From positions 640,001-704,000 of the forward strand of contig CAXXMV010000002.1 in NCBI GenBank assembly GCA_963662285.2: a DNA stretch of 64,000 bases, written 5' to 3'. Source of the stretch: a bacterium. Its GTDB lineage: Bacteria > Hinthialibacterota > Hinthialibacteria > Hinthialibacterales > Hinthialibacteraceae. This document shows positions 903 through 31,076 of the stretch, piece after piece. The position numbers were made by a program, and so were the translations under genes. The notes beneath the pieces are model-generated. The model was not told where the DNA came from and ran no database searches. It saw only the letters and a list, made by a program, of their open reading frames with translations. Each line of letters opens with the position of its first letter. The stretch's first letter is position 1.

Positions 903-1926
903 TATAATCCTGGTAATTATTGGTTTTAGATTGGCTGGTAAGCAGGTCGTTCAAATCCCACAGATACACTGTCGCATCAGGGCCGCCAGTAATGAATTTG
1001 GTTCCGTCGGGGGAGAAGCGTACGGGATTGGCTGATAGATAAGTATCTGTGTACAATTTAAATAGCCGTGTATCTGATATTATATCGTAACAAATTGTAC
1101 TATTATTAGAACCTATGATTACTTTTGAATTATCTTCAGATAAATCTATGCTAAAGTAATAATCATTCTCTAAAACAGGTATAACACGATCAATTTTCGA
1201 AGAATTTATATTCCATTCAAAAATTCCTATACTTGTATTAAAACTGTAAAGAGATTTCATATCTGTTGTAATATCGGTTTCATACCCAAAGTTATCAAAT
1301 GTTAATGTATTTTCTTTGTCATTAAGGTTCCAAATTTTGGTTCCAACTAAAACGTTATTATTATCCAGAAAAATAGATTTTACATTACCTCCTTTAGAAA
1401 TATTTTCAATTTCGTTTTGTAACTTATATGTCTGTGTATCCCAAATTTTTCCTATGTTGTCTACACCATATGAGAATAAAGACATACCATCTGGTGAGAT
1501 ATCCATTGACCAAACATGACTTCCCCAATCATCTGAACCAAATTGTACATCATCATGTGCTTTGAAAGAATTAATCGTTTTCCCATTTACAATATCTAAT
1601 ATATATACAGTTCCTCCTTCAGTGCCAGCAAATAACACCTTTTCATTGCATGAAAAAACGATGCATTCAGTATAATATATGTTAAATATGTGTATCAATT
1701 TCCCTGTATTAACATTCCATAGTTTAACTCCTCCAGAACCACATGTCGCCAACAAATCTCCATTAGTACTAAATTCAGCAGATACAACAATTGAGTACGA
1801 ATGAACTGGATCATGATGAAAAATATGGATTGGTTCAGGTATCTTATTGCTAGCAAGAGTATAGTCGATAGAAAATCCTGTGAACGAGATGAAAATCAAT
1901 AAGAAATATACGATATAATTCTTCAT
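898..1926 (-). CDS. Secreted WD40-repeat beta-propeller protein
   Basis: Signal peptide; repeats FSTNGDLLA..VKLWN, ISPDG..GKIWD and FSPDGTKFITGGPDATVYLWD. Confidence 0.9.
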   Translation of the reverse strand: MKNYIVYFLLIFISFTGFSIDYTLASNKIPEPIHIFHHDPVHSYSIVVSAEFSTNGDLLATCGSGGVKLWNVNTGKLIHIFNIYYTECIVFSCNEKVLFAGTEGGTVYILDIVNGKTINSFKAHDDVQFGSDDWGSHVWSMDISPDGMSLFSYGVDNIGKIWDTQTYKLQNEIENISKGGNVKSIFLDNNNVLVGTKIWNLNDKENTLTFDNFGYETDITTDMKSLYSFNTSIGIFEWNINSSKIDRVIPVLENDYYFSIDLSEDNSKVIIGSNNSTICYDIISDTRLFKLYTDTYLSANPVRFSPDGTKFITGGPDATVYLWDLNDLLTSQSKTNNYQDYK

Positions 1927-1940
1927 TCTATTCTCCTATT
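1832..1940. repeat. Direct repeat copy 2, paired with 794..902
   Basis: Same manual alignment as copy 1. Confidence 0.85.
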
Positions 1941-2032
1941 AATACACTTCTTAATTACTAATGTATACCCAAAACGCCCTTGCCGTATGACCTGCTAATC
2001 CCACGCTAAATTGATTACTAACGGGACCAGGC

Positions 2033-2061
2033 GTAGGGTGGGTTGGCCTTATCGACCCACC
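2033..2061 (+). repeat. REP-like palindrome with GTAG foot
   Basis: GTAG-GGTGGGTTG...CGACCCACC hairpin in intergenic space. Confidence 0.6.
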
Positions 2062-2090
2062 AAAAGACCACCCCCGATGCGCTATTGTCT

Positions 2091-3182
2091 CTAATGCTTT
2101 TGCCAGGAATTTACTTCTGATTCAAGGTTGGTTATGCGGAATGAGACGTAATCTTGTTTTTCTATTAGATATGAGTCATCCCCCACCTTATGGGTGAAAT
2201 GGTATGGAGACTCATCAAAATCTACTTGTTCCAATGTTTCAGGATCATAGGCGCGGAATTTGTAAGAAATATTGTGGTCTGCGTCCGATACCATATCTCT
2301 GCACCAAATTTTGTTTCTCCAATAGCCGAATATGTTTTCTAGATAAACAGGGTAAGTCGCTATTTTCTCGAATGGTTCAACTGTATAGATGCATGTGTAT
2401 TCTTCATTGGTTTTATTATCACGTTTAGTACTGTATATCAATCCATCAGGTGTTACTATGCTATAGTATAAGAATGTATAATCATACTTTTCGATAACTT
2501 CTCCAGAATTTAAATCGATCTGCCAAGTCAATGGATTCTCTTTCATAGTGGGATCGAAATTATCATTCAATTTCATTGTTTCACACAATACTAATCGATC
2601 ATGTTTTTCATCAACTCCGATACTCATAAGTCGAAATGCATCATATCCGTATGATCCAATTATTTTACCGGATTTATCATATATGAACAGATGCGGTTTT
2701 TCATCATTCTCATCATGCCGGTAATTGATAAAAACAACTATATTATCCGTCCATTTGTAAACGCCCATTATTCTGCACCAATACCGCTCTACATATTTAA
2801 TGCTGCTTGGAGATAAATAAGGTTGAAAAATTTCAACCGAATAGTCCAATTCACCTGTAGCAATTGATAGAGATGTCAATATATTATCGTATCTCGTATT
2901 GAAAGAATGTGGATTATTTAAGGGTATATACCGATATACAGTTTCGAAACATGTCAAAGAATCATCTATGATGAGCGGGAAAGAAATATCATGATTATTT
3001 AGTTGATATCCGTCTTCACCTATATCTCCATGAAATGTGTATAGACGTGAGTTATCATCCCTGGTCATTTTCATAATCGATTTTGGATGAAATAAACGGG
3101 TTAAATCCGCCTGATGCAACTCTCCATTACATAAAACAGGCGTCAAAAAAATCAAGCACATAACTAAACATTTGATTTTCAT
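2091..3182 (-). CDS. Secreted hypothetical protein, probably beta-rich/propeller-like, with C-terminal SEVNSWQKH tail
   Basis: 363-aa ORF with N-terminal signal peptide, RBS AAAGGAAAG and short beta-strand periodicity. Confidence 0.75.
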   Translation of the reverse strand: MKIKCLVMCLIFLTPVLCNGELHQADLTRLFHPKSIMKMTRDDNSRLYTFHGDIGEDGYQLNNHDISFPLIIDDSLTCFETVYRYIPLNNPHSFNTRYDNILTSLSIATGELDYSVEIFQPYLSPSSIKYVERYWCRIMGVYKWTDNIVVFINYRHDENDEKPHLFIYDKSGKIIGSYGYDAFRLMSIGVDEKHDRLVLCETMKLNDNFDPTMKENPLTWQIDLNSGEVIEKYDYTFLYYSIVTPDGLIYSTKRDNKTNEEYTCIYTVEPFEKIATYPVYLENIFGYWRNKIWCRDMVSDADHNISYKFRAYDPETLEQVDFDESPYHFTHKVGDDSYLIEKQDYVSFRITNLESEVNSWQKH

Positions 3183-3325
3183 TATTTCGTCTTTCCTTTA
3201 TCGTAGCAGTTCAGTCATATTGAATAATAATATAGACGAATAACCATGCAGAATTAATCACTCTGTGCGGATTTATGCTAAATTATAATCATATTTCGAT
3301 TGGGACTAACGAGATTGAATACTGA

Positions 3326-4087
3326 TCAACCCTTGAGATTGAGTCTGGGCCGGGGAGTTTGCGGGGGCTGCTGGTCTTTGCTGGTCTGCGTCGCTGGTGG
3401 GATATTGGCTGGAATGGCCGCGTTAGGAAATGGCGAATTGAATCCCGCAGCATTCGGCGCAGAGGCGCCAGGCATCGGGTTTTGCATGGCTGGAGAATTA
3501 GGCATAGTCATAATAGGACGTTGATAAGCTGCCTGCTGCATAGGCGAAACCGGATTGAGTGGTAGTTGTGATCCGGAAGATGTCCTCTGCATTCCCGCTG
3601 ATGGGAAATTTGATATTTTGGAATTCGAGGAATCATAGGAAGCGCGCTGATGGTTATTATTATTTGCCGGCTTCATCATTGCGATTGATTCTTCGCTGCC
3701 TTCTTCAATAAATTTCTCAACCGCTTTGCGCCACCCATCTTGAAGATCTTCAACAATGGGAATAACTTCATCAACCAACGATGCATCCTGCTTGATATTG
3801 GCTTTAACGAGATGGTGATAGACAAAGTCGTATACGCGCAGAAGGTTTTCAGCAAGTTCCCCACCCTTTTTAAGATCTAAAGCAACCATCAATTCAGTGA
3901 AAATGCGTTGTAACTTGGTAAGTTCAATATGCGCTTTTTCTATTTCCTTCTTCTCGATGGCTTTTTTTGACATATGCAATTTCTTGACCGCAGCATCGAA
4001 AATCATCAGCAACAGTTTTGGCTGACTGGCAGTTTCGATTTGCGTTTTCAAGTAATGCTGGTGCGGATTTGCTAATGGCGTCGCCAC
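3326..4087 (-). CDS. fliS: Flagellar export chaperone FliS with long low-complexity C-terminal extension
   Basis: YLKTQIETASQPKLLLMIFDAA...ELMVALD..GGELAENL.RVYDF...AN...L.DGW motif set; lies directly downstream of fliD. Confidence 0.93.
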   Translation of the reverse strand: MATPLANPHQHYLKTQIETASQPKLLLMIFDAAVKKLHMSKKAIEKKEIEKAHIELTKLQRIFTELMVALDLKKGGELAENLLRVYDFVYHHLVKANIKQDASLVDEVIPIVEDLQDGWRKAVEKFIEEGSEESIAMMKPANNNNHQRASYDSSNSKISNFPSAGMQRTSSGSQLPLNPVSPMQQAAYQRPIMTMPNSPAMQNPMPGASAPNAAGFNSPFPNAAIPANIPPATQTSKDQQPPQTPRPRLNLKG

Positions 4088-7520: not shown

Positions 7521-10073
7521 TTATCCAAGCAGCGATAAGAATCCCTGACTCTGGAAGTTCGCTTGCGCCAAAACAGATATACCTGCCTGCTGGAGAACCT
7601 GGCCCTTTGTGAACTGCGAAGTCTCGCGGGCGAAATCAGCGTCTCGAATTCTTGATTCGGATGCCGTCAGGTTTTCCGCCGAAACGCTTAAGTTATTGAT
7701 AGCCGATTCCATACGGTTCGTCGCCGCACCAAGAATGGAGCGCGTCTTGTTAACCTGCGAAAGCGCTTCATCAATGATTAGTATGGCTTCATTAGCGCCG
7801 TCAATGGAAGTGATATCAATATCAGAGATGGTTCTGCCGCTGCCTTCTCCGAAGCCCAGGTTAGTTGAAGTCAAGTCACCTATACTAGCCCTGAATGACT
7901 GAAATGCCTGGGCGCCGATGTGGAAGTTAAGAGAACTATTATTGGTCGAGACTAGAATAGTTGTTCCAGCATCAGGTAAACCATCAGTACGAGCAGTGAC
8001 GTCAATAATGTTATCGAAATCTACTGTAACGAATCGTGCAACTCCACGGTTTCCACCACTGTTACCATCGATAAAGACAACATCCTGATTACCATTTCCG
8101 AAGGTGACTTTCTCACCACCATTCAGCGTTCCGGTGAATTCTGCAGGGGTCGTCTCCAGTTTATCAGTTCCAGCAGATAAACCGCTACCGATGCGAAGAG
8201 TAACCATTGATTGGGGAACGCCTTCTTTAGTAGAATTTTGACCTTTGAGAGTAATGATATCGCCAGCTTCAGCGCGGACATCTTCGCCGCCTTCAATACG
8301 GAAAGTCGCCTGTTCTGCAAAACCTTCCTGCTTGAGCACGGCATCATCCTGGAAGGTGAAATTATCACGCGTAGTCGCGCTAGGCGCCCTTTGGAATGTC
8401 AGGGTGAAACTGGTTTGTGAATTTGATTTACCTACATCATCAATTACTTGAAGCGTCCCGCTTGAGGTAAATGTGAACATGGCGTCTTCAAATCTAGTTT
8501 GAACTCCATTTTCTGTTCCAACAAGACCCAAACTTTGATCATATCCACGCGATCTTGTGTTCAATTCTGCAATAAGGCCGGATACGCTGCCGAAACGGAA
8601 ATCGTTCAGGAGAGTGTCAGCCTGTGCATTCGTGACGCTATAATCAAACGTAAACGAACCTTCAAAAGTTGTCCCATCTGAGTTTGTTCCATGCAAAACC
8701 ATCATGTCGCCGTCTTGAATTGTGGTTCCACCGGTATAAACTCCACCAACGAACGTTCCATTCATGATCAACGCACTGGTACCTACTGCTGAGCCGCCAG
8801 ATTGAATTGATGTAGACCGGTTAATAACCGCGCCGGTGGCGTCACTGAAGACGATGCCGCTTTCTACAATACGTTGCTGAGCGGCCTGGACGTCTTTGAC
8901 CGTGATTTCAAATTGTCCAGTGCCAAAAGTTGATCCAGTGATTGCAGTGATAGAATTTCCAACCTGACCGATTCCTGACAAGTAGGATTGAACTCCGATT
9001 TCGCCAGAGCGGCTTACTCCTTTTGCTTGGGTAACAACATAATCACCCCGGACTAAGGTTATCGAGAGATCAGAATCATTGTGTAATTCAGCTTGAGATG
9101 TTAGCACTAAACGACCTAAATTATCTACAGTGCCTGCGCTAACTGTTGTTCTAAATGTGGTAGGAATGCTGGCGGTAGTTAGAGCACCGAATAAGGCTTT
9201 TTCAGCATTATCAATAGCGCCTTGTACAGCAGATGCCATATTGGCTACAGTTGTTGCCGCATCAACGCTTAAAGTGCCAGTAAACTTGGTGACGCCATCA
9301 GCCAGGACGCCTTCAAATACAAATGTATCGGCTGCAGCAACACTGACGCCATTGAAAAATTGAGCATCTATAGTGGCGGCGCCAGCAAGAGCACCAGCGA
9401 AATGCGAGTCACCAGAGAACATAGCCATGCTGACAGCGATATCGGTCTGATTACCGATGCCGGTGTTGATAACTTGGGGTTTTCCTGTGCCTTCTTCACC
9501 AGAGATAATCTGGCTTTGAGCATCCTTGGTTTTGATGATGTTGATGAAGGACTTTCCCGTAGCCAAGGTACTGGCAACTGGAGATGCATCAATCGACATG
9601 CCGATATTTTGCTGACCGTCAATTAATCCGGTAGAAATTGAAAAGTCGCCGTTCAAAAGAAAGTTGCTTCCGAATTGGGTTGTATTAGCGATTCGAGTGA
9701 CTTCGTCAATACTTTGGAAGACTTCATCCTGAAGGGCGCGTCGGGCTGGCATATCGTTGACGCCGGTGTTCGCTGCCTGGATGGCTAACTGACGAACACG
9801 ATTCAAACGAACTGTGGTTTCCTCGAGTGCTCCTTCAGCAACATTAATCAAGTTGATGCCATCAGAAGCATTGGTTATAGCCTGGTTTAAACCTTGAACC
9901 TGAGTACGCAGGTTGTTGGCGACGCTCAAACCGGCCGCGTCATCGCCTGCGCGGTTGATCCGGAGTCCTGAAGACAAACGCTCGATTGATTTCTGAATAG
10001 ATCGACCGGTTTTGTCTAAGTTACGGGTTGCATTAACTGCTGCGACATTATTTACAATTCTGGAAAGACTCAT
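7521..10073 (-). CDS. fliC: Flagellin with a large hypervariable region (850 aa)
   Basis: N-terminal IERLSSGLRINRAGDDAAGL; C-terminal RSILGA..NR...ENLTASESRIRDADFARE...QQAG.SVLAQAN. Confidence 0.98.
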   Translation of the reverse strand: MSLSRIVNNVAAVNATRNLDKTGRSIQKSIERLSSGLRINRAGDDAAGLSVANNLRTQVQGLNQAITNASDGINLINVAEGALEETTVRLNRVRQLAIQAANTGVNDMPARRALQDEVFQSIDEVTRIANTTQFGSNFLLNGDFSISTGLIDGQQNIGMSIDASPVASTLATGKSFINIIKTKDAQSQIISGEEGTGKPQVINTGIGNQTDIAVSMAMFSGDSHFAGALAGAATIDAQFFNGVSVAAADTFVFEGVLADGVTKFTGTLSVDAATTVANMASAVQGAIDNAEKALFGALTTASIPTTFRTTVSAGTVDNLGRLVLTSQAELHNDSDLSITLVRGDYVVTQAKGVSRSGEIGVQSYLSGIGQVGNSITAITGSTFGTGQFEITVKDVQAAQQRIVESGIVFSDATGAVINRSTSIQSGGSAVGTSALIMNGTFVGGVYTGGTTIQDGDMMVLHGTNSDGTTFEGSFTFDYSVTNAQADTLLNDFRFGSVSGLIAELNTRSRGYDQSLGLVGTENGVQTRFEDAMFTFTSSGTLQVIDDVGKSNSQTSFTLTFQRAPSATTRDNFTFQDDAVLKQEGFAEQATFRIEGGEDVRAEAGDIITLKGQNSTKEGVPQSMVTLRIGSGLSAGTDKLETTPAEFTGTLNGGEKVTFGNGNQDVVFIDGNSGGNRGVARFVTVDFDNIIDVTARTDGLPDAGTTILVSTNNSSLNFHIGAQAFQSFRASIGDLTSTNLGFGEGSGRTISDIDITSIDGANEAILIIDEALSQVNKTRSILGAATNRMESAINNLSVSAENLTASESRIRDADFARETSQFTKGQVLQQAGISVLAQANFQSQGFLSLLG

Positions 10074-13938: not shown

Positions 13939-15675
13939 ATGCTTGAAAATCATACCTGGCAAAGTATCCCTGGAACCAGCTCCTGCGAAATATATCCGCT
14001 AGAAAGAAAACCAGATATCAAAAGCAGCAACTCTTATATCATTCAATCCGAGACGGAAATTATCGTTATCGATCCTGGGGCGGATAAGAAACAAATTGAG
14101 CAAATCGCGGATGTCTTGATTCACGCAACCGGTTCAAAGAAAAAAATAGTATTCATTATCCTGACCCATTGTCATTTCGATCATTTCAAAGGAGCGCAGA
14201 AACTTATTCTATTGCTTGGGTATCCTTGTTATCTCTGCGTTCAAGAAAACGGAGCGCAGGCTCTTGAATCAGGAGATGAAAAACTGACATTGTCATATCT
14301 CTATAATCATAAGTTGCCAAAGCATTCGGTAGATATAAGATTATTGATGGATAGTGATTGGGAAACGGCAAGAAACCGTGCGGTTCACTTAGCCAAGAAT
14401 GCCCAGATTATTTTACATAATGAAATACAGACAATCTCTGATAGTAAACAACTCCTATGTCAATCAATGTCTCTTGGAAAATCTGATTCGCTATTTTTTT
14501 ATCATACTCCTGGTCATAGCCCGGATAGTATCTGCATCCGTATCGGAAAAATTTTATTTTCCGGAGATCTGTTATTGGCTTCCAATCCCGGTATTGCTGG
14601 AATTCCAGGTTGGGACAAAGAAGGTTTAATCAATTCTCTGGATAATATCCAATGGTTGGTTAATCAAGCAGATATCGAAATCTGTACTTTAGGGCATGGT
14701 AGAGCTTTATCGGGCGCAAAATTACCTTTAATTCTGCAACGAACGATTCCTTTTACCAAACGCTTGGATAATATCGTCGAATTGGACATGCAAAGGGCGC
14801 ATTTTCTGGATGATTACGCCAAGCATTTACTGGATGAAGTTTCCGAATTGTTCTCTGTTATATCCGGTAAGTTATTATCTCTTTCGTACCACTTGGAGAG
14901 TTTGTCTGAGGAAGAGGAAGCCCGAAAAATTTTGGACAAATTGGATATCGACGCTATTGATGGCTTTTTGTCGGATTTTAACCAATATGCCAATGAGTAT
15001 GGCGCCGGTAACCGGTTGAAGATGGAGATTCCCCTGAAAGCCATTCAAGTCATCATCAGCATCAAGAAAATCTTTGATGATGAAAAGTTGCAAAGCGTGA
15101 TTGATGTCTCCCTGCTGCGTAGGGTAAGATGGTTGATCTTGGATTTTCTCAATATAATGCAGGGTTTCCGCGAGGAAGTGCTGGGCAAAAGTGAAAATAT
15201 CAGCCATCTTTTCATTGCGTATTTAACTGAACTGCAAAAGCCGGTTATCCAGGATAAGGATTTTATGGATTCGTCGGGTGATGAAAATGCCTTTGTCCAG
15301 GAAATGATCCGGCGCATCGCCTTACGCAATATTTATGAGGATGTGAAAATTACCTTCACTGCGATGATTGGCGTCCCGGATGTTTATATCGAAAAAGAGC
15401 GCTTCTGCGATATGATGACTGCCATTTTTGAATCCATCGTAACTGCTGGCGCCAAACATATTCAGGTTGTAGTTTCACAAAACAACAACAAAATTCTTAT
15501 CGAATTAAAATCAACTCCAGAGATGGACTTTGAACATGTATTGAGTAGAAAAGCCCGGTTTATAGAGCGTATCTTCATGATGTTCGGAGCAAAGTTTTTA
15601 TGTAAAGAAGGCGACCACAATGGCCGCTTGATAATCGAATTGCTGCCAGCCGCTGATTGTTTCATGGTTAATTAA
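13939..15675 (+). CDS. MBL-fold metallohydrolase fused to a helical region and a degenerate GHKL/HATPase-like C-terminal domain
   Basis: IDPG, THCHFDH, TPGHSPDS, FSGD and GHG metal motifs. The C-terminal alpha/beta pattern resembles HATPase_c but has no N/G boxes (inferred by eye). Confidence 0.8.
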   Translation: MLENHTWQSIPGTSSCEIYPLERKPDIKSSNSYIIQSETEIIVIDPGADKKQIEQIADVLIHATGSKKKIVFIILTHCHFDHFKGAQKLILLLGYPCYLCVQENGAQALESGDEKLTLSYLYNHKLPKHSVDIRLLMDSDWETARNRAVHLAKNAQIILHNEIQTISDSKQLLCQSMSLGKSDSLFFYHTPGHSPDSICIRIGKILFSGDLLLASNPGIAGIPGWDKEGLINSLDNIQWLVNQADIEICTLGHGRALSGAKLPLILQRTIPFTKRLDNIVELDMQRAHFLDDYAKHLLDEVSELFSVISGKLLSLSYHLESLSEEEEARKILDKLDIDAIDGFLSDFNQYANEYGAGNRLKMEIPLKAIQVIISIKKIFDDEKLQSVIDVSLLRRVRWLILDFLNIMQGFREEVLGKSENISHLFIAYLTELQKPVIQDKDFMDSSGDENAFVQEMIRRIALRNIYEDVKITFTAMIGVPDVYIEKERFCDMMTAIFESIVTAGAKHIQVVVSQNNNKILIELKSTPEMDFEHVLSRKARFIERIFMMFGAKFLCKEGDHNGRLIIELLPAADCFMVN

Positions 15676-16370
15676 GAATTGAGTGCAGTGATGAATTTTT
15701 TCAAGGATTCAATAATTTTTTCTTTTTTAATTTGGTTGCTAAAGAAAAAATCTCGTCTTATTTCCAATTGAAGCCAGGGGAGTTCAGGATAATGACTTTG
15801 GATAAGATTCCCACCCTTAAAGGGATGGTTGATTGCAGCTTCGAAGCCAAAGCATTCCGTGAAGCATTTAGCCAGTAAATCCATCCATCCTGGAGGAAGT
15901 GTTTTTCCCTCTCTATCACTCAAACAAATTTCGGGTCGCTTGATTCCCTCCCCAGGTCCAATGGGAGGGCCTTCAGTGGCCATGGTATGGCAATCAATCC
16001 CCAAAATTATATTTGTATTTTTACTTTTTCTTGTCAATTCATGATGATAGGGATAATAGTATTTTTCCAGTAACTGGTTGATTACAATTTCTGGTAATTT
16101 CTGGTTATATACAGGAACATTCCAACAGGTATGCGTTTTTACTACTCCATCAGCGCGACGATCATCAATTTCTCTGTTTAAATCTACAATAGCGCGGGCT
16201 ATATTGGTCGTGACATATTCATTAACCTGTTCTTTGATTGAATAAATATCTGCGGCATATTCATCGCCGTCTTTGACAATATCGTCTCGCGTAAGGCTGC
16301 AAAATGGTTGAACCTCAAGAGGAACATCCAAACCGGCATGAGGCGATGAAATTATAATGGGTAATGTCAT
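15672..16370 (-). CDS. N-formylglutamate amidohydrolase-family protein
   Basis: PHAG, RAIVDLNR, YYYPYH, DCHTM, NHPFKGG and LQLEI motifs. Confidence 0.9.
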   Translation of the reverse strand: MTLPIIISSPHAGLDVPLEVQPFCSLTRDDIVKDGDEYAADIYSIKEQVNEYVTTNIARAIVDLNREIDDRRADGVVKTHTCWNVPVYNQKLPEIVINQLLEKYYYPYHHELTRKSKNTNIILGIDCHTMATEGPPIGPGEGIKRPEICLSDREGKTLPPGWMDLLAKCFTECFGFEAAINHPFKGGNLIQSHYPELPWLQLEIRRDFFFSNQIKKEKIIESLKKFITALNS

Positions 16371-17974
16371 TTTACCGGCCCCTTGGCGGAGCCGTCGCGG
16401 CGTTGATCGGCTACGCCGATAAATTCTTTGCGATCATGCATTACGAGGTTGATACTGCCTAAATAAAATGAAAAAGGTTCCCGAACTTTAATCTGATAAC
16501 CATGTTTTATTAACACGTCAGGGATATCGTTTCTCATTCGAGAGCCTTCAAGATGAACCAATCCCTGTAAAGTACAGTGTATGCGGGGCGCTGTTACCGC
16601 TTCTAAGGGAGACTGTTTATTTAATCTCATCAAAACTTGCAGGATCGATGGCGTAATCCGGTCGCTGCCTGGCGATCCGATAGCCAACCACGGCCTTCGA
16701 CCCTGAAAAACTATAGTAGGCGCAACGCTGGCCCAAGGAACCGCATTAGGTCTTAGATAATATGGGTGTGATATATCTTTAAATTCAAAAGCGCTCATAT
16801 AGTTGTTATATAGAAATCCCAACTCAGGCGATGCTTCGCATGAACCGTAGACTTTTTCTATAGATTGAGTCAATGCAACAACATTTCCATTTCGATCTAT
16901 AATTGATAAATGAGTGGTCTCTCCATGAGTCTTGATTCTTCTCCGGATTTGTTTGGCGACAAGTTTGGTATAATCTTCACTCAACATTTTTCTATCTTCC
17001 ACTTGGGGATAGAAACTGGGATCAAAAGGCCGGTCGCGCCGGTCTAGAAAAGCCCGGCGGATCAATTCTGCTAAAATAAGTACTCCACGGGGCGTGTCAA
17101 AATCCCGTTCTTTTTCTGGAATAGACATCAGCAGATTGATCATTTCAATAAGAGTGCGTCCCGCTCCGGGAGGTGGAAAAGTGATCAATCGTTTTCCTTC
17201 ATACCTGACGCTGATCGGTCGCCTTTCTATAGGCCACGGTATTTGAGCTAAATCATCCAATTGAATTAAGCCGTTATTTGCCGCCATATCAGCATGTATT
17301 TTTTGTGCAATATCCCCATTGTAAAAATCTTCAACTCCCTTTTCCATTAACTGAGTCAAGGTCTCTGCTAATACCGGCTGCTTAAATAAATCGCCTGGAT
17401 TATAAGCAACTTGTCCATCTTTAAGAAATAAACTACCCGCGGTTCGGGATTTCAGATGCGCTGATTCTCGTTGCAGCAGCCGACTTTGTAAATCTGTAAT
17501 GTGATAACCTGATTTAGCCAATTCAATAACCGGTTCAAGAATTTTGTTTATTGAATATGTGCCATATGTTTTTCTGGCGTATTCCAGAACTGCGGGCGTG
17601 CTTGGAACCGTGGTGGAGCGGCGCCCCCGGTTTCGTTCCCTTCTAGGGATAAGGCCTGGTGTTGCGCGATTAGGCGCACGGGATGAGCCATCCAAAGCGA
17701 AAGTTCGTCTTGGCTCTATGGTGTGAATCAGCATCATCGTCTGTCCGCCAAGACCTGATGCTTGCGGTTCGCAAACTCCTAAGGCGAAAGCGGCGGCGAC
17801 AGCCGCATCAATAGCGTTTCCTCCTTGTTCAAGAACGGCGCATCCTATATCTGTTGCGCAGGGATGAGCCGTTGAAACCATTCCATAATGGGAAACAGCC
17901 AGTTTCTGAGGATAACTTTCTTCTATGCATGAATCAATTTGTTCCTCTGATATTTCTAATTGATTCGTAGACAT
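16367..17974 (-). CDS. ggt: Cytoplasmic gamma-glutamyltransferase-family Ntn hydrolase
   Basis: GGNAIDAAVAAAFALGVCEPQASGLGG, TVP, FYNGDIA, PPPGAG, autocleavage site E/TTHLSIID, GSPG, APRIH, D.RRDG; no signal peptide. Confidence 0.92.
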   Translation of the reverse strand: MSTNQLEISEEQIDSCIEESYPQKLAVSHYGMVSTAHPCATDIGCAVLEQGGNAIDAAVAAAFALGVCEPQASGLGGQTMMLIHTIEPRRTFALDGSSRAPNRATPGLIPRRERNRGRRSTTVPSTPAVLEYARKTYGTYSINKILEPVIELAKSGYHITDLQSRLLQRESAHLKSRTAGSLFLKDGQVAYNPGDLFKQPVLAETLTQLMEKGVEDFYNGDIAQKIHADMAANNGLIQLDDLAQIPWPIERRPISVRYEGKRLITFPPPGAGRTLIEMINLLMSIPEKERDFDTPRGVLILAELIRRAFLDRRDRPFDPSFYPQVEDRKMLSEDYTKLVAKQIRRRIKTHGETTHLSIIDRNGNVVALTQSIEKVYGSCEASPELGFLYNNYMSAFEFKDISHPYYLRPNAVPWASVAPTIVFQGRRPWLAIGSPGSDRITPSILQVLMRLNKQSPLEAVTAPRIHCTLQGLVHLEGSRMRNDIPDVLIKHGYQIKVREPFSFYLGSINLVMHDRKEFIGVADQRRDGSAKGPVK

Positions 17975-17981
17975 GTTTGTC

Positions 17982-20126
17982 CTATTCTTTCGTGGCGAGA
18001 TATTGAGCCAATAATAATGTGCGTTGTAGAAGACTTATTCTACTGATAGATTCATCTGGCGCATGTAAATTGTGAGTCACCGGACCCATTCCGCAAATAA
18101 CGGGAACCGAAGAAGGCGCCATGCCTGCAACTGAAGGAACCGCCGAGGACTGTTCAGTTAATTTGATATCCCATGTTTCGGCTAAGTTAATGATTTCTTT
18201 CGCCATTTTGGATCCTGCGCGGCTTTTAATCATAGGAGGCCGATCAGATACAAGTTCAAATTCAGCATTAAATTCTTTTTGCATCAAACTATTTCTCATC
18301 TTCTTTTCGGCTTCATCGGCGTTTTGTTGTTTTATATAGTTCATGATAACAGAGGCTTCGACCCGGTGAGGCAACTGCATGGGAAAAGATTCTGTATGAA
18401 AATCCACCGCAGCGATAGACAACCGTTTTTCACTAATACTAAGATCGGAAAATTCGGTTAACTTCGCACTGGCCCATCGAAAAGGGCCATGTTTTTTGAC
18501 GTTTTTATCAATGCGACGCCCTTTTCCTTCAACAACCAAATGATAGAGCCGTTGACCTCTACGTTCTACGATGAGGGATTCATCATGGATGCTTGGGCAT
18601 ACAACAATTACCCGATCTGCCCTTTCAATCGCAAGATCAATTAGATCGGAACTATAACGGCACTCCATCCCCTCGTCGCAATATAAAAGAACTCCTATGC
18701 GGCGTTTAGCCAGAGAACGGGATAATTGTAAAGCCCGAAGCGCAAATTCAATCTCTACCAAAGGACCACGCGATGAACCAATTCCTTCGCCATATAAAGC
18801 TTCCGGTTCACGGCGGAAACGTTGAAAAGGTTCTGAAGATTTTAGCGGAACATCCAAATGAGCAATTATGAGCGTCCCATTTTGAAGACCCGCATTGGTT
18901 TCCCAAGTCCACACGATTGGATCATCGGATAAATCATCGACCAGTTTCATTTTTACATCATTAAAAACCGATTGCATTTCCCGGTATGCATGTCGTATTC
19001 CAACCAGGTTATCGGTTCTGCTATGCAACCGAGTCCAACTATCTAAGCGGTCTTCGATGCGGTCGCGACGCTGCGTTACAAAAGAAAAAATGGATGAATC
19101 AAGACTTTGTTTGCGGCGTTGGAGCGGCGGTGGTTCTGGCGTTCCGAAATATCTAGCGTTGGCAACTTCAACCAGACGATTAACAACCGCCTTAAAATCA
19201 AGACCGGCAAATGCTGCTCCGACAAGATACGAGCCATGTTCTCCCAGACTTGGAAGACTGTTGATCTCCAATATATATAAATTCCCCTCTGCATCCAAAC
19301 GCATATCGATACGGGCGCAGTCGTAACACCCCAATACTTTAAATGCTTGTAGGGAAATCTCTTGCGCTTTGGCCGCAACGTCTTTGTTGATGGGAGCCGG
19401 GCATTGATATAATACTTCTCTACCGGATTTCCGTTGCTTGTCCTCCATCGTGTAAATATTGGGGCCGCCTTCTCCAAATATCAGCTCGACGGGAGAAAAT
19501 ATTTCAGGATTATCATTACCCAGAATCCCCACATTAATTTCACGTCCATCAATATATCTTTCAACCAAAACCGGTTGTTGGTATTTTTCGAAGATAACCA
19601 GCGCTGCGTCGTGCAGTTCCTCGTCATTATTCACAATACGAATACCAAACGAAACCGCTTCGTTTTTAGGCTTGACGATTAGAGGATATGCAAGATTCGG
19701 GATGGTGAAATCAGGCCTGTCTAAAACCGCAAAATCAGGCGTAGGCAGACCATGTTGCTGGAACAACATTTTGGCTACAACCTTGTCCAGCGCCAGAGAA
19801 TGCGCCAACGGTCCGGAACCAACGTAGGGGATCCCAACCATTTCGAGTATGGAGGGTACATGAGTATACCTGGCCTGTCCCTGTATACCGTATGAAATGT
19901 TAAACACCATCCCCGGCAATTCGCCTTTGATTACACGAGGCATAAAATGTTCAAGATTGTCGACCAGGTCTTTATCTCCCTCAAAAGATTTGACTTGATG
20001 TCCGCCCTTCTTGAGCGCATCAGTAATGCGCTTGATCGAGTTCATTCCATACTTTTCCCTGTTTGGAACGCCAAACAGGTTGATTACCCGATTACTGTCC
20101 CGGTTATAAACAATCGCTACTTTCAT
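17982..20126 (-). CDS. Ddl-like ATP-grasp ligase fused to a degenerate M20/M25/M40 peptidase domain
   Basis: Ligase part: GIPYVGS, DKVVAK, IVKP.NE..SFGI, ERYIDGRE, RIDMR, LEINSLP. C-terminal part: AHLDV, LYG.GI, ERRG, DRPP, CGMGP and HAPDE. Confidence 0.88.
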   Translation of the reverse strand: MKVAIVYNRDSNRVINLFGVPNREKYGMNSIKRITDALKKGGHQVKSFEGDKDLVDNLEHFMPRVIKGELPGMVFNISYGIQGQARYTHVPSILEMVGIPYVGSGPLAHSLALDKVVAKMLFQQHGLPTPDFAVLDRPDFTIPNLAYPLIVKPKNEAVSFGIRIVNNDEELHDAALVIFEKYQQPVLVERYIDGREINVGILGNDNPEIFSPVELIFGEGGPNIYTMEDKQRKSGREVLYQCPAPINKDVAAKAQEISLQAFKVLGCYDCARIDMRLDAEGNLYILEINSLPSLGEHGSYLVGAAFAGLDFKAVVNRLVEVANARYFGTPEPPPLQRRKQSLDSSIFSFVTQRRDRIEDRLDSWTRLHSRTDNLVGIRHAYREMQSVFNDVKMKLVDDLSDDPIVWTWETNAGLQNGTLIIAHLDVPLKSSEPFQRFRREPEALYGEGIGSSRGPLVEIEFALRALQLSRSLAKRRIGVLLYCDEGMECRYSSDLIDLAIERADRVIVVCPSIHDESLIVERRGQRLYHLVVEGKGRRIDKNVKKHGPFRWASAKLTEFSDLSISEKRLSIAAVDFHTESFPMQLPHRVEASVIMNYIKQQNADEAEKKMRNSLMQKEFNAEFELVSDRPPMIKSRAGSKMAKEIINLAETWDIKLTEQSSAVPSVAGMAPSSVPVICGMGPVTHNLHAPDESISRISLLQRTLLLAQYLATKE

Positions 20127-20279
20127 TACTTGTTCCTCGATTTAAAAATAATGTGCTCAGTATTATAGGTTTATTAAATATGCTTAAATAGGCAGAGTGG
20201 AAAAATAATCTTTGCTTTTTGATCTATTTTGTTTTGTTGGGTGGGGATAAAAGAAAATCGTAACTTACTCAAAAAAAAC

Positions 20280-27666: not shown

Positions 27667-27840
27667 TTCGATAGAATTAGAAGATCAATGCTTTGCTCTC
27701 TTCGTTAAAACCTTCTAAAGCAGTATAATCACAGGTTCTCCTTTTTCTCGAGTCATAAAAGCAATAGAGAAATTAAAGTAGTTTCAATGGCTCTGCATTC
27801 CCGAATATGTTCTTGGCGAGCGCTACAGAATAGGATTAAT

Positions 27841-29559
27841 ATGTCATCAACCAAACCGGTTATAGTTCAAAGTGATAAAACAGTTTTTCTTGAAGTTGAC
27901 TCTCCTGTATTTGAAGAAGCGAGAGATACGTTATGCAGTTTCGCGGAATTAACCAAATGCCCGGAGCATATTCATACCTATGTCATTTCTCCGCTATCGC
28001 TTTGGAATGCAGCCAGTTCCGGCTTAACCACAGAAGAAGTGATTAATGGACTTAAAAAGTATTCCCGCTATCCCATTCCAGCCAATGTAGAGGTTGATAT
28101 CCGTGAATATATGAATCGCTACGGGCGCCTGGTATTAGAGAAACGGGATGACTATCTAGTGCTGCGCAGCGAAGATCCCATGCTGCTTGACCAGATCAGC
28201 AATCATAAAAAAACTCATTCATTCGTCGAAGCGCGAATTGATCAAAACACTATTCGAGTCGGAGGAGAATACCGGGGCCGCTTAAAACAAACATTGATTA
28301 AGATCGGATTCCCGGTCAAGGATCAAGCGGGGTATGTCGAAGGCGATTCGCTTGCCATGGAATTGCGCGACTCCATGGTATCCGGCGACCAATTCATAAT
28401 GCGTGATTATCAACGTTCCGCCATTTCTTCATTTTACCGGGGAGGAAGCACCGTCGGCGGAAGCGGAGTAGTAGTGCTTCCCTGTGGTTCGGGCAAGACC
28501 ATTATCGGCATCGGGGCCATGGTTGAATTGGGTAAAAAAACCTTGATCCTGGCCACCAATATAGTTGCGCTGAGACAATGGAAGCGAGAAATCATTGATA
28601 AAACTTCATTAGAAGACGACGATGTCGGTGAATACAGCGGCGAGACGAAAGCAATCAAGCCGGTCACTATAGCGACTTATCAGATTCTTACCTACCGCAC
28701 CAAGAATACCAATATATTTCCGCACTTAAAACTTTTTGAATCTCAAGACTGGGGTTTGATTATTTATGATGAAGTGCATCTGCTGCCAGCTCCTATATTC
28801 CGCATAACTGCTGATATCCAGGCCCGTAGGCGCCTGGGTCTTACGGCGACTCTTATTCGTGAAGATGGTTTGGAAAGCGACGTATTCAGTTTGATTGGGC
28901 CGAAATGTTATGATGTTCCCTGGAAGGTATTAGAGAAGCAAGGTTGGATCGCACAGGCTGAATGTTATGAAATCCGCACTCCGCTTCCGATGGAGCATCG
29001 GCGTGAGTATGTCATGTCTCCTCCTCGTCAGCAATATCGCATAGCATCGGAGAATCCTGTAAAACTGGAAGTATTAGAGAGCCTGTTAAAACAGCATGTT
29101 AACGACCGTGTAATGATAATTGGACAATACCTTCGACAATTAAGGATTGTGGCCAGCGCCTTCAAGATACCGTTATTGACTGGTCAGACTCCTAATGTGG
29201 AGCGGGAGAAACTCTATCAACAATTTCGCACCGGAGAGATTAGCAAACTGGTTGTTTCTAAAGTGGCGAATTTCGCCGTTGATCTGCCGGATGCCAATGT
29301 AGCCATACAGATTTCCGGTTCTTTCGGTTCACGTCAGGAAGAGGCGCAAAGATTAGGCCGGATTCTCCGGCCTAAGAGCGACGGACAAATTGCTCATTTC
29401 TATTCGATAATCACGCGCGACAGTAGTGAAGGTGAATTCGCCCAAAAAAGACAACGTTTTTTAACTGAACAAGGTTACTATTATTCAATACGCAATATGG
29501 AAAATGGAACAGATAAACCCGATTCGGCTCATGGTGTGAAGATTGGAATTACTGAATGA
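27841..29559 (+). CDS. xpb: XPB/Ssl2/Rad25-family SF2 DNA helicase
   Basis: IVQSD.T..LE, PEHIHTY.I.PLSLWNA, LPCGSGKT, DEVH, GLTAT, RED, SKVA...DLP.A and QEEAQRLGRILR; start chosen at MSSTKP. Confidence 0.95.
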   Translation: MSSTKPVIVQSDKTVFLEVDSPVFEEARDTLCSFAELTKCPEHIHTYVISPLSLWNAASSGLTTEEVINGLKKYSRYPIPANVEVDIREYMNRYGRLVLEKRDDYLVLRSEDPMLLDQISNHKKTHSFVEARIDQNTIRVGGEYRGRLKQTLIKIGFPVKDQAGYVEGDSLAMELRDSMVSGDQFIMRDYQRSAISSFYRGGSTVGGSGVVVLPCGSGKTIIGIGAMVELGKKTLILATNIVALRQWKREIIDKTSLEDDDVGEYSGETKAIKPVTIATYQILTYRTKNTNIFPHLKLFESQDWGLIIYDEVHLLPAPIFRITADIQARRRLGLTATLIREDGLESDVFSLIGPKCYDVPWKVLEKQGWIAQAECYEIRTPLPMEHRREYVMSPPRQQYRIASENPVKLEVLESLLKQHVNDRVMIIGQYLRQLRIVASAFKIPLLTGQTPNVEREKLYQQFRTGEISKLVVSKVANFAVDLPDANVAIQISGSFGSRQEEAQRLGRILRPKSDGQIAHFYSIITRDSSEGEFAQKRQRFLTEQGYYYSIRNMENGTDKPDSAHGVKIGITE

Positions 29560-31076
29560 GTTTATTTAATATATTAGTGAACGCGCCTCATGAACGATTG
29601 CGACGATTAGCCAATGAATTTGGCATATCATCTGCATCTCCATCCAAGAGAACTATCTTGCATGAGTTGATGCACTGTTATAAGGATGAAGGCTTTATCT
29701 CTGCATTGGTTAAAGGTCTGCCTGAACAATCGAAACGTATGATCTATGGTCTCGTTTTTTTTACTCCTGATATTGAGACCATTATTATTCCCCGGTCCTT
29801 GAAGAAATTATGCACAAAAACTTGCATCATGGACGACTGTCTTATCCATCTATTTGATGTGGGGCTGCTTTTCCGTGATTCAGATAGCGCAGAAGATTGC
29901 GTGTTGCTGCCGGAGGAGATACGTCGAACCCTGCAAAATCATTACACTTCAGATTTCAGTAAACTGACCCCGCAGAGTGAATACGAATTAGAAGGCATTT
30001 CTGTTCGCCATCCCGGATTGGAAGCAGTTTTTCATCTGGCCTCTGTGGTTTTACATCATCGTCCGGTTCAAACCCAGAAAGGCATGGTTCATCGGAAATC
30101 AATTGATCGATGGGCGGAGCGTTTGAGCAATTCAGATTTACCGGATCAGTTTTTCGAATTCGTATTTGAGTTTTGCATAGAACGTGATTTTTTTACTATT
30201 CATAAAAACCGCATCCGGATAACCCCGGCTGCCAGTGAATGGTTTAACCGGGACGAAATCTCCATAAAAAACGATATCTGGTCTTATTATCTGGAAACGC
30301 GAATAATGCCCAATCCCGCCCTCCAGGCTTTATTGGTGGTTTTGCGCTCGATGGAAAAATTTGTGCAGGATAACAATAAATCTCCGGTTTATTCCATATC
30401 TGATTTCCATTCCGCCTGGAGTGTAGCGATTCAAGAAGATGACTCAATATCCCTATGTCTGGATGCTCTTAAGTGGTTATCATTTCTTGGTCTTATCCAA
30501 TTTAATACGCCGAAAAAGCCAACAACGTTTTTTCTAACTCGCGTCGGAATCGAAAATCTGCTCTATATCAAATTTCCTCCAGAAACTCATCCTCCTGACC
30601 GCTGCGTCTTACAACCGAATTTTGACATGTTAGTCCCGCCTTCTTTTAGATATCCTGACTTATGGGAATTAGAACATCTAGCCGAATTCAAAAAGCGGGA
30701 TATATTTACCGAATATCATATTTCTCAGCGCAGCATATTATTCGGAATGCGACGCGGCAGAAAAACAGATAAGACGCTAAATTTCCTTAATAGCCTGACT
30801 GGCGACAGAATTCCTGAAAATATCAAATATAGCGTCGAGGAATGGTGTGGGAAATACGGACAGATCACACTAAAAAAGACAGTGCTCGTGGAGTGCGCCT
30901 CAGTCGATTTAGCGGAAGAGATGTCGCATATTCCTGAAATCAGCAATATGCTGGAACAGCGCATCGCTGATCGATATTTCATAATCGCCGAATTGAATGC
31001 ACACCAGGTAATGTATATATTAAGAGATAAAGGATATGAACCTGCCGCCGTTAAACGTTTTGCCGGTGAGGAATAG
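29556..31076 (+). CDS. XPB-binding helicase-associated (Helicase_C_3, Tfb2/p52-like) protein
   Basis: ATGA overlap with xpb; VLQPNFDMLVP...YHIS..SI..G....IPENI.YS.EEW...YG pattern mirrors the XPB N-terminal domain. Confidence 0.82.
   Translation: MSLFNILVNAPHERLRRLANEFGISSASPSKRTILHELMHCYKDEGFISALVKGLPEQSKRMIYGLVFFTPDIETIIIPRSLKKLCTKTCIMDDCLIHLFDVGLLFRDSDSAEDCVLLPEEIRRTLQNHYTSDFSKLTPQSEYELEGISVRHPGLEAVFHLASVVLHHRPVQTQKGMVHRKSIDRWAERLSNSDLPDQFFEFVFEFCIERDFFTIHKNRIRITPAASEWFNRDEISIKNDIWSYYLETRIMPNPALQALLVVLRSMEKFVQDNNKSPVYSISDFHSAWSVAIQEDDSISLCLDALKWLSFLGLIQFNTPKKPTTFFLTRVGIENLLYIKFPPETHPPDRCVLQPNFDMLVPPSFRYPDLWELEHLAEFKKRDIFTEYHISQRSILFGMRRGRKTDKTLNFLNSLTGDRIPENIKYSVEEWCGKYGQITLKKTVLVECASVDLAEEMSHIPEISNMLEQRIADRYFIIAELNAHQVMYILRDKGYEPAAVKRFAGEE

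Follow-up and report, generated by a model that had tools for sequence, protein, structure and literature searches.

A conserved gene trio of an ATP-grasp ligase fusion and two amide hydrolases, a candidate make-and-break module for a glutamate-type amide

The window analysed here, a stretch of 64,000 nucleotides (positions 640,001 to 704,000 of contig CAXXMV010000002.1, assembly GCA_963662285.2) from a bacterium of the Hinthialibacteraceae, carries three adjacent genes. They encode a D-alanine-D-alanine ligase (Ddl)-like ATP-grasp ligase fused to an M20 peptidase-like domain, a gamma-glutamyltransferase (GGT)-family hydrolase and an FGase-family amidohydrolase. Both hydrolase genes lie downstream of the ligase gene and on the same strand in 83 of 97 loci, which come from at least 11 phyla. 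This linkage is far beyond chance and the trio is a real unit. Our preferred reading, which we put forward tentatively, is that the three enzymes make and break an amide of the glutamate type in the cytoplasm. This amide would be N-blocked or otherwise lack an alpha-amine, could be a solute or a short oligomer with gamma linkages, and would take part in cation and osmotic balance. An original prediction, drawn from the letters of the window, had proposed a make-and-recycle function, which is a reasonable inference, and had named, besides a metabolite, a polymer or a protein tag as product, two options that are conceivable.

A conserved unit of three coupled genes

The three minus-strand genes were confirmed at 17982-20126, 16367-17974 and 15672-16370, using the listing of open reading frames (ORFs), the translations and the sequence. 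The operon has the following features:

17982..20126, minus strand: ligase gene (P0001), 714 aa, Ddl-like ATP-grasp fused to an M20-like domain (Pfam)
19137..20126, minus strand: ATP-grasp (Ddl-like) half, residues 1-330 (Pfam, PDB, invariant columns, Foldseek)
17985..19109, minus strand: M20-like half of the carboxypeptidase G2 (CPG2) type, residues 340-714, with a degenerate di-zinc site (1cg2 alignment, family alignment, Foldseek)
17975..17981, minus strand: 7-nt spacer from ligase stop to GGT start (sequence)
16367..17974, minus strand: GGT-family (leaderless by inspection) N-terminal nucleophile (Ntn) hydrolase (P0002), 535 aa (Pfam, TIGR00066, PDB GGT matches)
16916..16918, minus strand: Thr353 codon, predicted autoprocessing and catalytic nucleophile (alignment to BlGGT 4y23, column counts)
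16790..16801, minus strand: codons Y392 to A395, altered alpha-amine pocket (alignment, orthologue counts, PMC8062742)
16367..16370, minus strand: ATGA overlap of GGT stop and FGase start (sequence)
15672..16370, minus strand: FGase-family amidohydrolase (P0003), 232 aa (Pfam, HutG model, 2q7s, alignment)
20127..20279, minus strand: AT-rich upstream intergenic region with TATAAT and an AGGA ribosome-binding site (sequence)

The coupling of the three genes that had been described, a 7-nt gap followed by an ATGA overlap, is confirmed by the sequence. The ligase gene ends in TAG, and an AGGA resembling a ribosome-binding site overlaps this stop codon just 5' of the GGT ATG.

Searching a protein collection for relatives of the ligase fusion yielded 2375 proteins at E<=0.001 out of 8000 candidates that were scored. 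Within this set, the top 120 are 713-765 aa long, with 55-84% identity and 97-100% query coverage, and are named 'ATP-grasp domain-containing protein' or 'D-alanine-D-alanine ligase', once 'M20 family metallo-hydrolase'. A pattern scan of one-genome-per-species contigs (185,579 species genomes) confirmed 357 ligase loci, and 365 were found in metagenome contigs; 80 of each were kept for the neighbourhood analyses (160 in total). Linkage was counted only where the ligase was full-length and was followed by 2.6 kb or more of sequence. Among the 58 such genome loci, 50 have both GGT and FGase, two have GGT only and six have neither, and the 39 metagenome loci gave a very similar picture (33, one and five, respectively). 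Unbiased clustering of all flank ORFs recovered no other family conserved to a comparable level. The claim of a conserved, self-contained neighbourhood is thus borne out and, with the trio conserved in 83 of 97 loci, the prediction does not founder on a lack of conservation elsewhere. The chance placement of three unrelated housekeeping genes (Ddl, GGT and HutG) side by side is an almost negligible explanation. All three proteins do belong to those Pfam families, but all three score below the equivalog cut-offs, the genome encodes a separate true Ddl, and the genes stay linked in 11 or more phyla; the conservation data refute this reading.

A quick IQ-TREE phylogeny of 61 ligases largely tracks taxonomy, with 13 phylum-label changes compared to a minimum of 10 and a mean of 31.8 after shuffling. 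Cross-phylum placements include Scalindua within Gammaproteobacteria and Planctomycetota in at least five groups. Among 60 relatives of the window's genome only three carry the ligase (same family 2/19, same order 1/6, same class 0/9, beyond 0/26), and it is therefore an accessory trait. Thiohalocapsa halophila DSM 6210 and Imhoffiella purpurea AK35 are carriers available in culture. Two loci deserve separate mention. In L065 the arrangement differs, with a GGT-like gene of only 39% identity upstream of the ligase and the FGase gene downstream. The cassette GGT orthologue of a Planctomycetaceae metagenome-assembled genome (MAG; L027:9188-10777) contains one in-frame stop codon, which could be a sequencing error, a pseudogene or recoding. 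Literature searches, judged by titles and abstracts, found no published account of the ligase-GGT-FGase trio and no characterised member of the family, in agreement with the original view that the pathway is uncharacterised.

The three encoded proteins

The ligase matches the Pfam family Dala_Dala_lig_C with 144.6 bits (residues 121-320) and Peptidase_M20 with 25.8 bits, compared to a cut-off of 24.6 (residues 420-710). Its best PDB relatives are Ddl enzymes (E ~1e-32, 29-34% identity over ~240 residues; Foldseek TMt 0.58-0.68). The residues K152, E189, E196, R272, D274, E287 and N289, which we take to have the catalytic roles of their counterparts in Ddl and other ATP-grasp enzymes, are invariant in 24 of 24 aligned relatives, and the Ddl-type loop segment with Y225, T226, D229 and K230 is invariant as well. 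P0001 thus resembles Ddl and VanA in the fold and in the catalytic residues for ATP and Mg. Unlike these enzymes, it stays below every Ddl cut-off (PRK01372, 183.1 bits vs 243; TIGR01205, 164.6 vs 245.65), has YNRxS at the place of the substrate motif and is fused to a dead M20 domain. The Ddl profiles align only from about residue 26 onward. The N-terminus of P0001 reads MKVAIVYNRDSNRV and the family consensus MKVAIVYNRxSxxVINLFG; the first 115 residues are the most conserved stretch of the ligase, and YNRxS...VINLFG stands where Ddl has its N-terminal GGxSxE motif, which presumably binds the first D-Ala. A true Ddl of 396 aa is encoded elsewhere in the genome (G000:C3; 287.7 bits vs a cut-off of 262). 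Going by these scores, the ligase is not the housekeeping Ddl, as had been suspected. The AlphaFold2 model of the fusion has a mean predicted local distance difference test score (pLDDT) of 72.9 and falls below 50 for residues 1-113, most likely because the alignment of 24 rows is shallow and of low diversity.

The same genome encodes a second Ddl-like ATP-grasp protein of 633 aa, fused to a UbiE-like methyltransferase domain (L002, ORF 1474-3375, minus strand; G000:C1:856921-860691). It also lies below all Ddl cut-offs (108 bits vs 243).

The M20 half was compared with carboxypeptidase G2 (1cg2) by alignment and with 24 aligned relatives. In Foldseek it matches the whole two-lobed fold of CPG2, catalytic and lid domains (1cg2 and 6xj5, TMt 0.70-0.72 over ~390 columns), and the poly(aspartate) hydrolase PahZ2 (0.70). 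The nearest NCBIfam models, the hydrolase PRK07338 and the glutamate carboxypeptidase PRK06133, are both far below cut-off. M20 glutamate carboxypeptidases of the CPG2 type are the nearest sequence family. Unlike CPG2, the cassette domain lacks most zinc ligands, which we take to be, in order, His, a bridging Asp, Glu, Glu and His. It keeps the first His ligand (H423, invariant), the neighbouring Asp and the general-base Glu (E485). The position of the bridging Asp is a variable S451, the second Glu of the DEE motif is an invariant G486, and the fourth ligand Glu is C509 here and Arg in most relatives; none of the 24 aligned relatives keeps any of these three. As for the last His ligand, it is H688 in the window protein and Tyr in most relatives. 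With four of the five di-zinc ligand positions lost across the family and only the first His ligand invariant, the M20 half is therefore not a working carboxypeptidase, and the amide-cleaving role first ascribed to it has to be given up; by its residues it is a predicted pseudo-peptidase. Newly invariant residues (R453, R522, R523, R526, H587, S661, S665) suggest a binding site.

The GGT-like protein P0002 matches G_glu_transpept (PF01019) with 381.6 bits and TIGR00066 with 349.5 bits, below the equivalog cut-off of 357.85. Its N-terminus, MSTNQLEISEEQ, shows no hydrophobic leader by inspection, without use of a predictor. Residues of P0002 were mapped on Bacillus licheniformis GGT (BlGGT, 4y23) and counted over 53 orthologues:

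T353: nucleophile (residue 399 of BlGGT 4y23), catalysis and autoprocessing, 53/53
E373: BsGGT E423, alpha-amine site, kept, 51/53
Y392: BsGGT E442, alpha-amine site, replaced, 52/53
A395: BsGGT D445, alpha-amine site, replaced, 44/53
A415: BsGGT S464, alpha-carboxylate site, replaced, 50/53
S416: BsGGT S465, alpha-carboxylate site, kept, 52/53
R99: BsGGT R113, alpha-carboxylate site, kept, 48/53

According to the review PMC8062742, the donor alpha-amine of GGT is bound by E423, E442 and D445 and the alpha-carboxylate by R113, S464 and S465. The review also reports that D445A abolishes transpeptidation and that D433N and D445N bring in activity on glutaryl-7-aminocephalosporanic acid (glutaryl-7-ACA), a donor without an amine. 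Two of the three alpha-amine-binding acids are lost in P0002 and the acyl donor would therefore not be an ordinary free gamma-glutamyl group, which argues against the ordinary gamma-glutamyl enzyme of the original prediction. We expect a donor with the distal carboxylate kept and the free alpha-amine absent, such as an N-acylated gamma-glutamyl, glutaryl-like or 3-aminoglutaryl unit. P0002 aligns almost gap-free to the lid-less BlGGT and was therefore judged to have no lid loop. In its Thr nucleophile, missing lid loop and lost donor-amine Asp it resembles GGTs acting on amine-less donors (class IV cephalosporin acylase, EcGGT D433N, BsGGT D445N), the lid-less Bacillus GGT and CapD acting on poly-gamma-glutamate. 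It differs from them in having Ala and Tyr rather than Asn and Gln at those sites, in its apparent lack of a leader and in its operon linkage to a ligase.

The 3-aminoglutaryl donor leads to an explanation in which the product derives from beta-glutamate or beta-glutamine: the distal carboxylate site is kept, and the amine would have moved away from the lost pocket. This pocket geometry fits, and beta-glutamate and beta-glutamine are known osmolytes according to PMC1224877. Glutamate 2,3-aminomutase (TIGR04368), however, is over cut-off in none of 30 carrier genomes, five of which reach more than 400 bits vs a cut-off of 650, and in the window's genome the KamA family is represented only by a generic gene (195 bits) that lies ~107 kb away from the cassette. 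We consider this route very unlikely.

P0003 matches Pfam FGase with 134.2 bits, and its sole solved sequence relative in a PDB profile search is the FGase 2q7s; it shares both traits with HutG. It lies far below the HutG cut-off (TIGR02017, 58.7 bits vs 278.75), and no hut genes are nearby. Going by score, P0003 is not HutG, one of the two enzyme identities that would have counted against the prediction, the other being a ligase making D-Ala-D-Ala. Family residues of the His/Asp/His type, including H11, D63, N65, R66, D126 and H128, are invariant in the alignment. FGase-family enzymes hydrolyse N-acyl-glutamate; we also assume a likeness of their fold to that of PghP. Together, the predicted specificities of the two hydrolases fit a stepwise breakdown of an N-acyl-(omega-amide)-glutamate. 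A complex prediction of GGT with FGase gave no support and no verdict either way.

Neighbouring genes and an amidotransferase variant

The flanks of the 160 loci add up to 1.2 Mb. Genes of ion or osmotic homeostasis, one or more per locus, were found in 46 of these loci, and in 33 of the 102 loci with at least 5 kb of flank. Mg2+ transporters occur in 30 loci, mechanosensitive channels in 17, cyclic di-AMP (c-di-AMP) cyclases in 11 and Na/Ca exchangers in four. Among the transporters are CorA (16 ORFs in 15 loci), MgtE (15) and CNNM/CorC (six ORFs in five loci), among the channels small MscS (12 ORFs in 11 loci) and MscK-like proteins (six), and the diadenylate cyclases are DacZ-like (six) or CdaA (five). 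Several of these neighbours lie at most 300 nt from the cassette and on the same strand. Given 39 MgtE and 33 CorA matches in 31 carrier genomes (~173.5 Mb), only ~0.27 MgtE and ~0.23 CorA would be expected in the flanks, compared to 15 and 16 seen. In a Phycisphaerales chromosome (L051, G015) the sole MgtE and the sole CorA matches of the genome flank the cassette, with an MscK-like gene alongside. Sigma-54 activators (14), Ser/Thr kinases (7 + 7 loci), PP2C (7) and agmatinase (near seven cassettes; over the TIGR01230 cut-off in the two tested) also recur.

These neighbours bear on a salvage or catabolic role, in which the hydrolases would dismantle an N-blocked gamma-glutamyl compound (a peptidoglycan stem peptide, a folyl- or F420-polyglutamate tail, or poly-gamma-glutamate) and the ligase would re-use a fragment. 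The GGT pocket suits N-acylated gamma-glutamyl donors, and the M20 half derives from glutamate carboxypeptidases; moreover, the review PMC8062742 describes the open cleft of lid-less GGTs as suited to polymeric poly-gamma-glutamate (PGA). However, mur, transporter, folate and F420 genes are not recurrent near the cassette, where ion channels and transporters are, and all three proteins look cytoplasmic by inspection. Salvage seems rather unlikely to us.

RimK (four), RimB-like (six) and AstE/AspA-like (four) genes also occur near the cassette, and RimK is true by score (460 bits vs 331). RimK/RimB, which sometimes adjoins the cassette as a separate unit, resembles it in pairing an ATP-dependent amide ligase with an enzyme undoing its bond; glutathionylspermidine synthetase/amidase presumably does likewise. 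Both differ from the cassette in the ligase subfamily and the hydrolase folds. The comparison raises protein or peptide tagging: the ligase, like RimK, TTL or LysX, would attach residues to a glutamate of a conserved protein, at its C-terminus or in a side chain, and the GGT-like and FGase-like enzymes would be erasers. Such a role would agree with a TTL Pfam match of P0001 (E 1.3e-07), with the unusually high conservation of the ligase (mean 60% identity across phyla), with the true RimK plus RimB-like and AstE/AspA-like genes adjoining the cassette in 4-6 loci, and with a GGT in which the alpha-carboxylate site survives and the alpha-amine site does not, a pattern to be expected if the substrate were a chain with Glu at its C-terminus. 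On the other hand, the invariant Ddl-type loop (Y225, T226, D229, K230) suggests, by an analogy to Ddl that we assume, an active site closing over small substrates. Among ORFs of at least 80-100 aa, none was a conserved small carrier, shorter ORFs not having been searched, and a Rosetta-stone search gave no longer fusions with the ligase at E<=1e-20, which is weak evidence. Tagging is quite unlikely in our view.

In nine of the 160 loci, a stand-alone class-I glutamine amidotransferase (GATase) of ~195 aa replaces GGT and FGase and follows the ligase gene after 40-150 nt. The models that fit it best are those of amidotransferase subunits (GMP synthase subunit A, 113 bits vs a cut-off of 198). 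In two of the nine loci agmatinase follows, and L066 additionally has arginine decarboxylase. This locus, from a Thiodiazotropha MAG (L066:9152-13720), has the gene order ligase, GATase, agmatinase, arginine decarboxylase; a gene resembling Orn/DAP/Arg decarboxylases lies on the opposite strand, and the whole offers a polyamine context. The GATase-type ligases form one clade nested among Sedimenticolaceae with the normal trio, pointing to a single replacement event, and differ at one position, K67V, out of 263 that are conserved. The chemistry of the ligase is therefore probably constant, and the accessory amide-handling enzymes can be exchanged or lost.

The variant invites an amidotransferase scheme: the GGT-like enzyme, or the class-I GATase in one clade, would free ammonia or an amine from a donor amide and the ligase would use it to amidate its acyl-phosphate, making the system a carboxamide synthetase rather than a make-and-break pair. 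The replacement of GGT and FGase by a GATase related to amidotransferase subunits speaks for it, as does the single changed ligase position, from which the chemistry is probably unchanged. Nevertheless, the GATase clade reflects one event in one nested lineage, the GGT has lost the alpha-amine pocket required for glutamine, and the FGase has no role in the scheme. We regard it as unlikely on balance.

A further lead, DgcN/DgcA, was rejected: DUF1611 and MR_MLE genes lie 0.5-8.6 kb upstream in five loci each and score below cut-offs (146 vs 480 and 142 vs 400 bits, respectively). They amount to no more than a weak lead, since three of those loci share identical spacing.

Within the window, none of the 43 ORFs scanned is a hut, mur or glutathione gene, as the prediction had stated; the gene content includes flagellar, chemotaxis, pilus, glycine-cleavage and SUF genes. 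The neighbours of the operon, a 5'-nucleotidase with a signal-peptide-like N-terminus, a metallo-beta-lactamase (MBL)-fold protein, a GH116 protein and a STAS protein, had no tblastn match at E<=1e-8 in the 160 loci and are therefore not part of the unit. The MBL-fold gene (578 aa, 13939-15675, plus strand) converges on the operon, its stop overlapping the FGase stop region by 4 nt, and it is not conserved beside the cassette at other loci. No signal peptide was seen in the three N-termini of the operon, judged by inspection and not by a predictor, and no sigma-54 motif was found in 20127..20279 by eye. Rfam gave no match in the whole window at gathering thresholds, and no riboswitch, and counts from a promoter and terminator scan were no better than in shuffles.

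Two further observations concern genes elsewhere in the window. A flagellin of 850 aa (7521-10073, minus strand) has helical regions of the normal kind at both termini and, between them, an insert of ~600 residues that gives a weak flagellinolysin-like match (NF033876, 41 bits vs a cut-off of 205, residues 682-779). At 27787-31073 (plus strand), the gene of an XPB/ERCC3-type helicase (590 aa) precedes that of a 506-aa protein with only a Helicase_C_3 domain.

A putative make-and-break module

In the make-and-break reading, the ATP-grasp half would activate a carboxylate as acyl-phosphate and join it to ammonia or an amine. Unable to bind two zinc ions, the CPG2-type domain of the fusion would serve in binding or assembly, plausibly by holding an end that resembles N-acyl-glutamate. 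In a second step, the GGT-like enzyme, after cleaving itself at Thr353, would hydrolyse the omega-amide of the product, as its residues suggest, and the FGase-like metal amidohydrolase may then cut the remaining N-acyl-glutamate bond to give free glutamate. In the acyl part of the amide, a distal carboxylate would be present and a free alpha-amino group absent; an N-acylated gamma-glutamyl unit is one example. The compound would most likely be a compatible solute, a counter-ion or a glutamate store in Mg2+/K+ and osmotic homeostasis.

A close parallel is the N-acetylglutaminylglutamine amide (NAGGN) system, for which we assume the gene roles of Ngg (GNAT::ATP-grasp), the amidotransferase AsnO and an M42 peptidase. 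It likewise combines an ATP-grasp ligase with a clan-MH peptidase-like protein and an amide-handling enzyme. In contrast, the cassette has no GNAT domain, and it has GGT and FGase where the NAGGN system has AsnO and M42. Dependence on NAGGN was rejected: Ngg (TIGR03103) is over cut-off in only three of 31 carrier genomes, all Chromatiaceae, and has no match in the window's genome (G000, 92.5% complete). According to PMC1224877, NAGGN is an N-blocked glutamine-type solute, and N-carbamoyl-glutamine amide is a second osmolyte of this type.

Several points weigh against the make-and-break reading. The ligase occurs without either hydrolase in 11 of the 97 loci, and three genomes with such loci (one without an adjacent accessory gene and two of the GATase type) lack, with the queries used, both the cassette-type GGT (best match 34% identity) and the FGase, so that 'break' would be dispensable for 'make' in some carriers. 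A maker co-transcribed with its breakers implies a futile cycle unless it is regulated. Ion-homeostasis neighbours are absent from this window in the ORF scan; the CorA gene of the genome is ~660 kb off and MgtE is on another contig. Clustering of the flank ORFs showed no N-acyltransferase conserved beside the cassette. Finally, the structure model is unreliable in the most conserved part of the ligase, residues 1-113, which precluded a pocket analysis.

As a variant, the single ligase could act iteratively, its product being a short oligo-gamma-glutamate in the cytoplasm, or a polyanionic isopeptide like it, which would buffer Mg2+/K+ and serve as a glutamate store. In that case the dead CPG2-type domain would grip the glutamate at the C-terminus of the lengthening chain, the GGT-like enzyme, lid-less and without an alpha-amine pocket, would cut at internal N-acylated gamma-glutamyl residues, and the FGase-like enzyme would free the C-terminal glutamate. 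An oligomer would account for one ligase with two different amidases, and for a cassette beside MgtE, CorA, MscS/MscK and c-di-AMP cyclase genes. This version strikes us as unlikely without being far-fetched.

The ligase family is large and well conserved, yet its members are annotated only as 'ATP-grasp protein' or 'Ddl'. The genes of the cassette should not be annotated as Ddl, GGT or HutG. If the make-and-break reading is right, the fusion would plainly illustrate how a ligase can take over a pseudo-peptidase domain. Should the product be a new solute or cation buffer derived from glutamate, with a tie to Mg2+ and to homeostasis under c-di-AMP control, it would close a gap in the understanding of ion management in many sediment and marine bacteria, among them sulfur oxidisers, sulfate reducers, planctomycetes and anammox bacteria.

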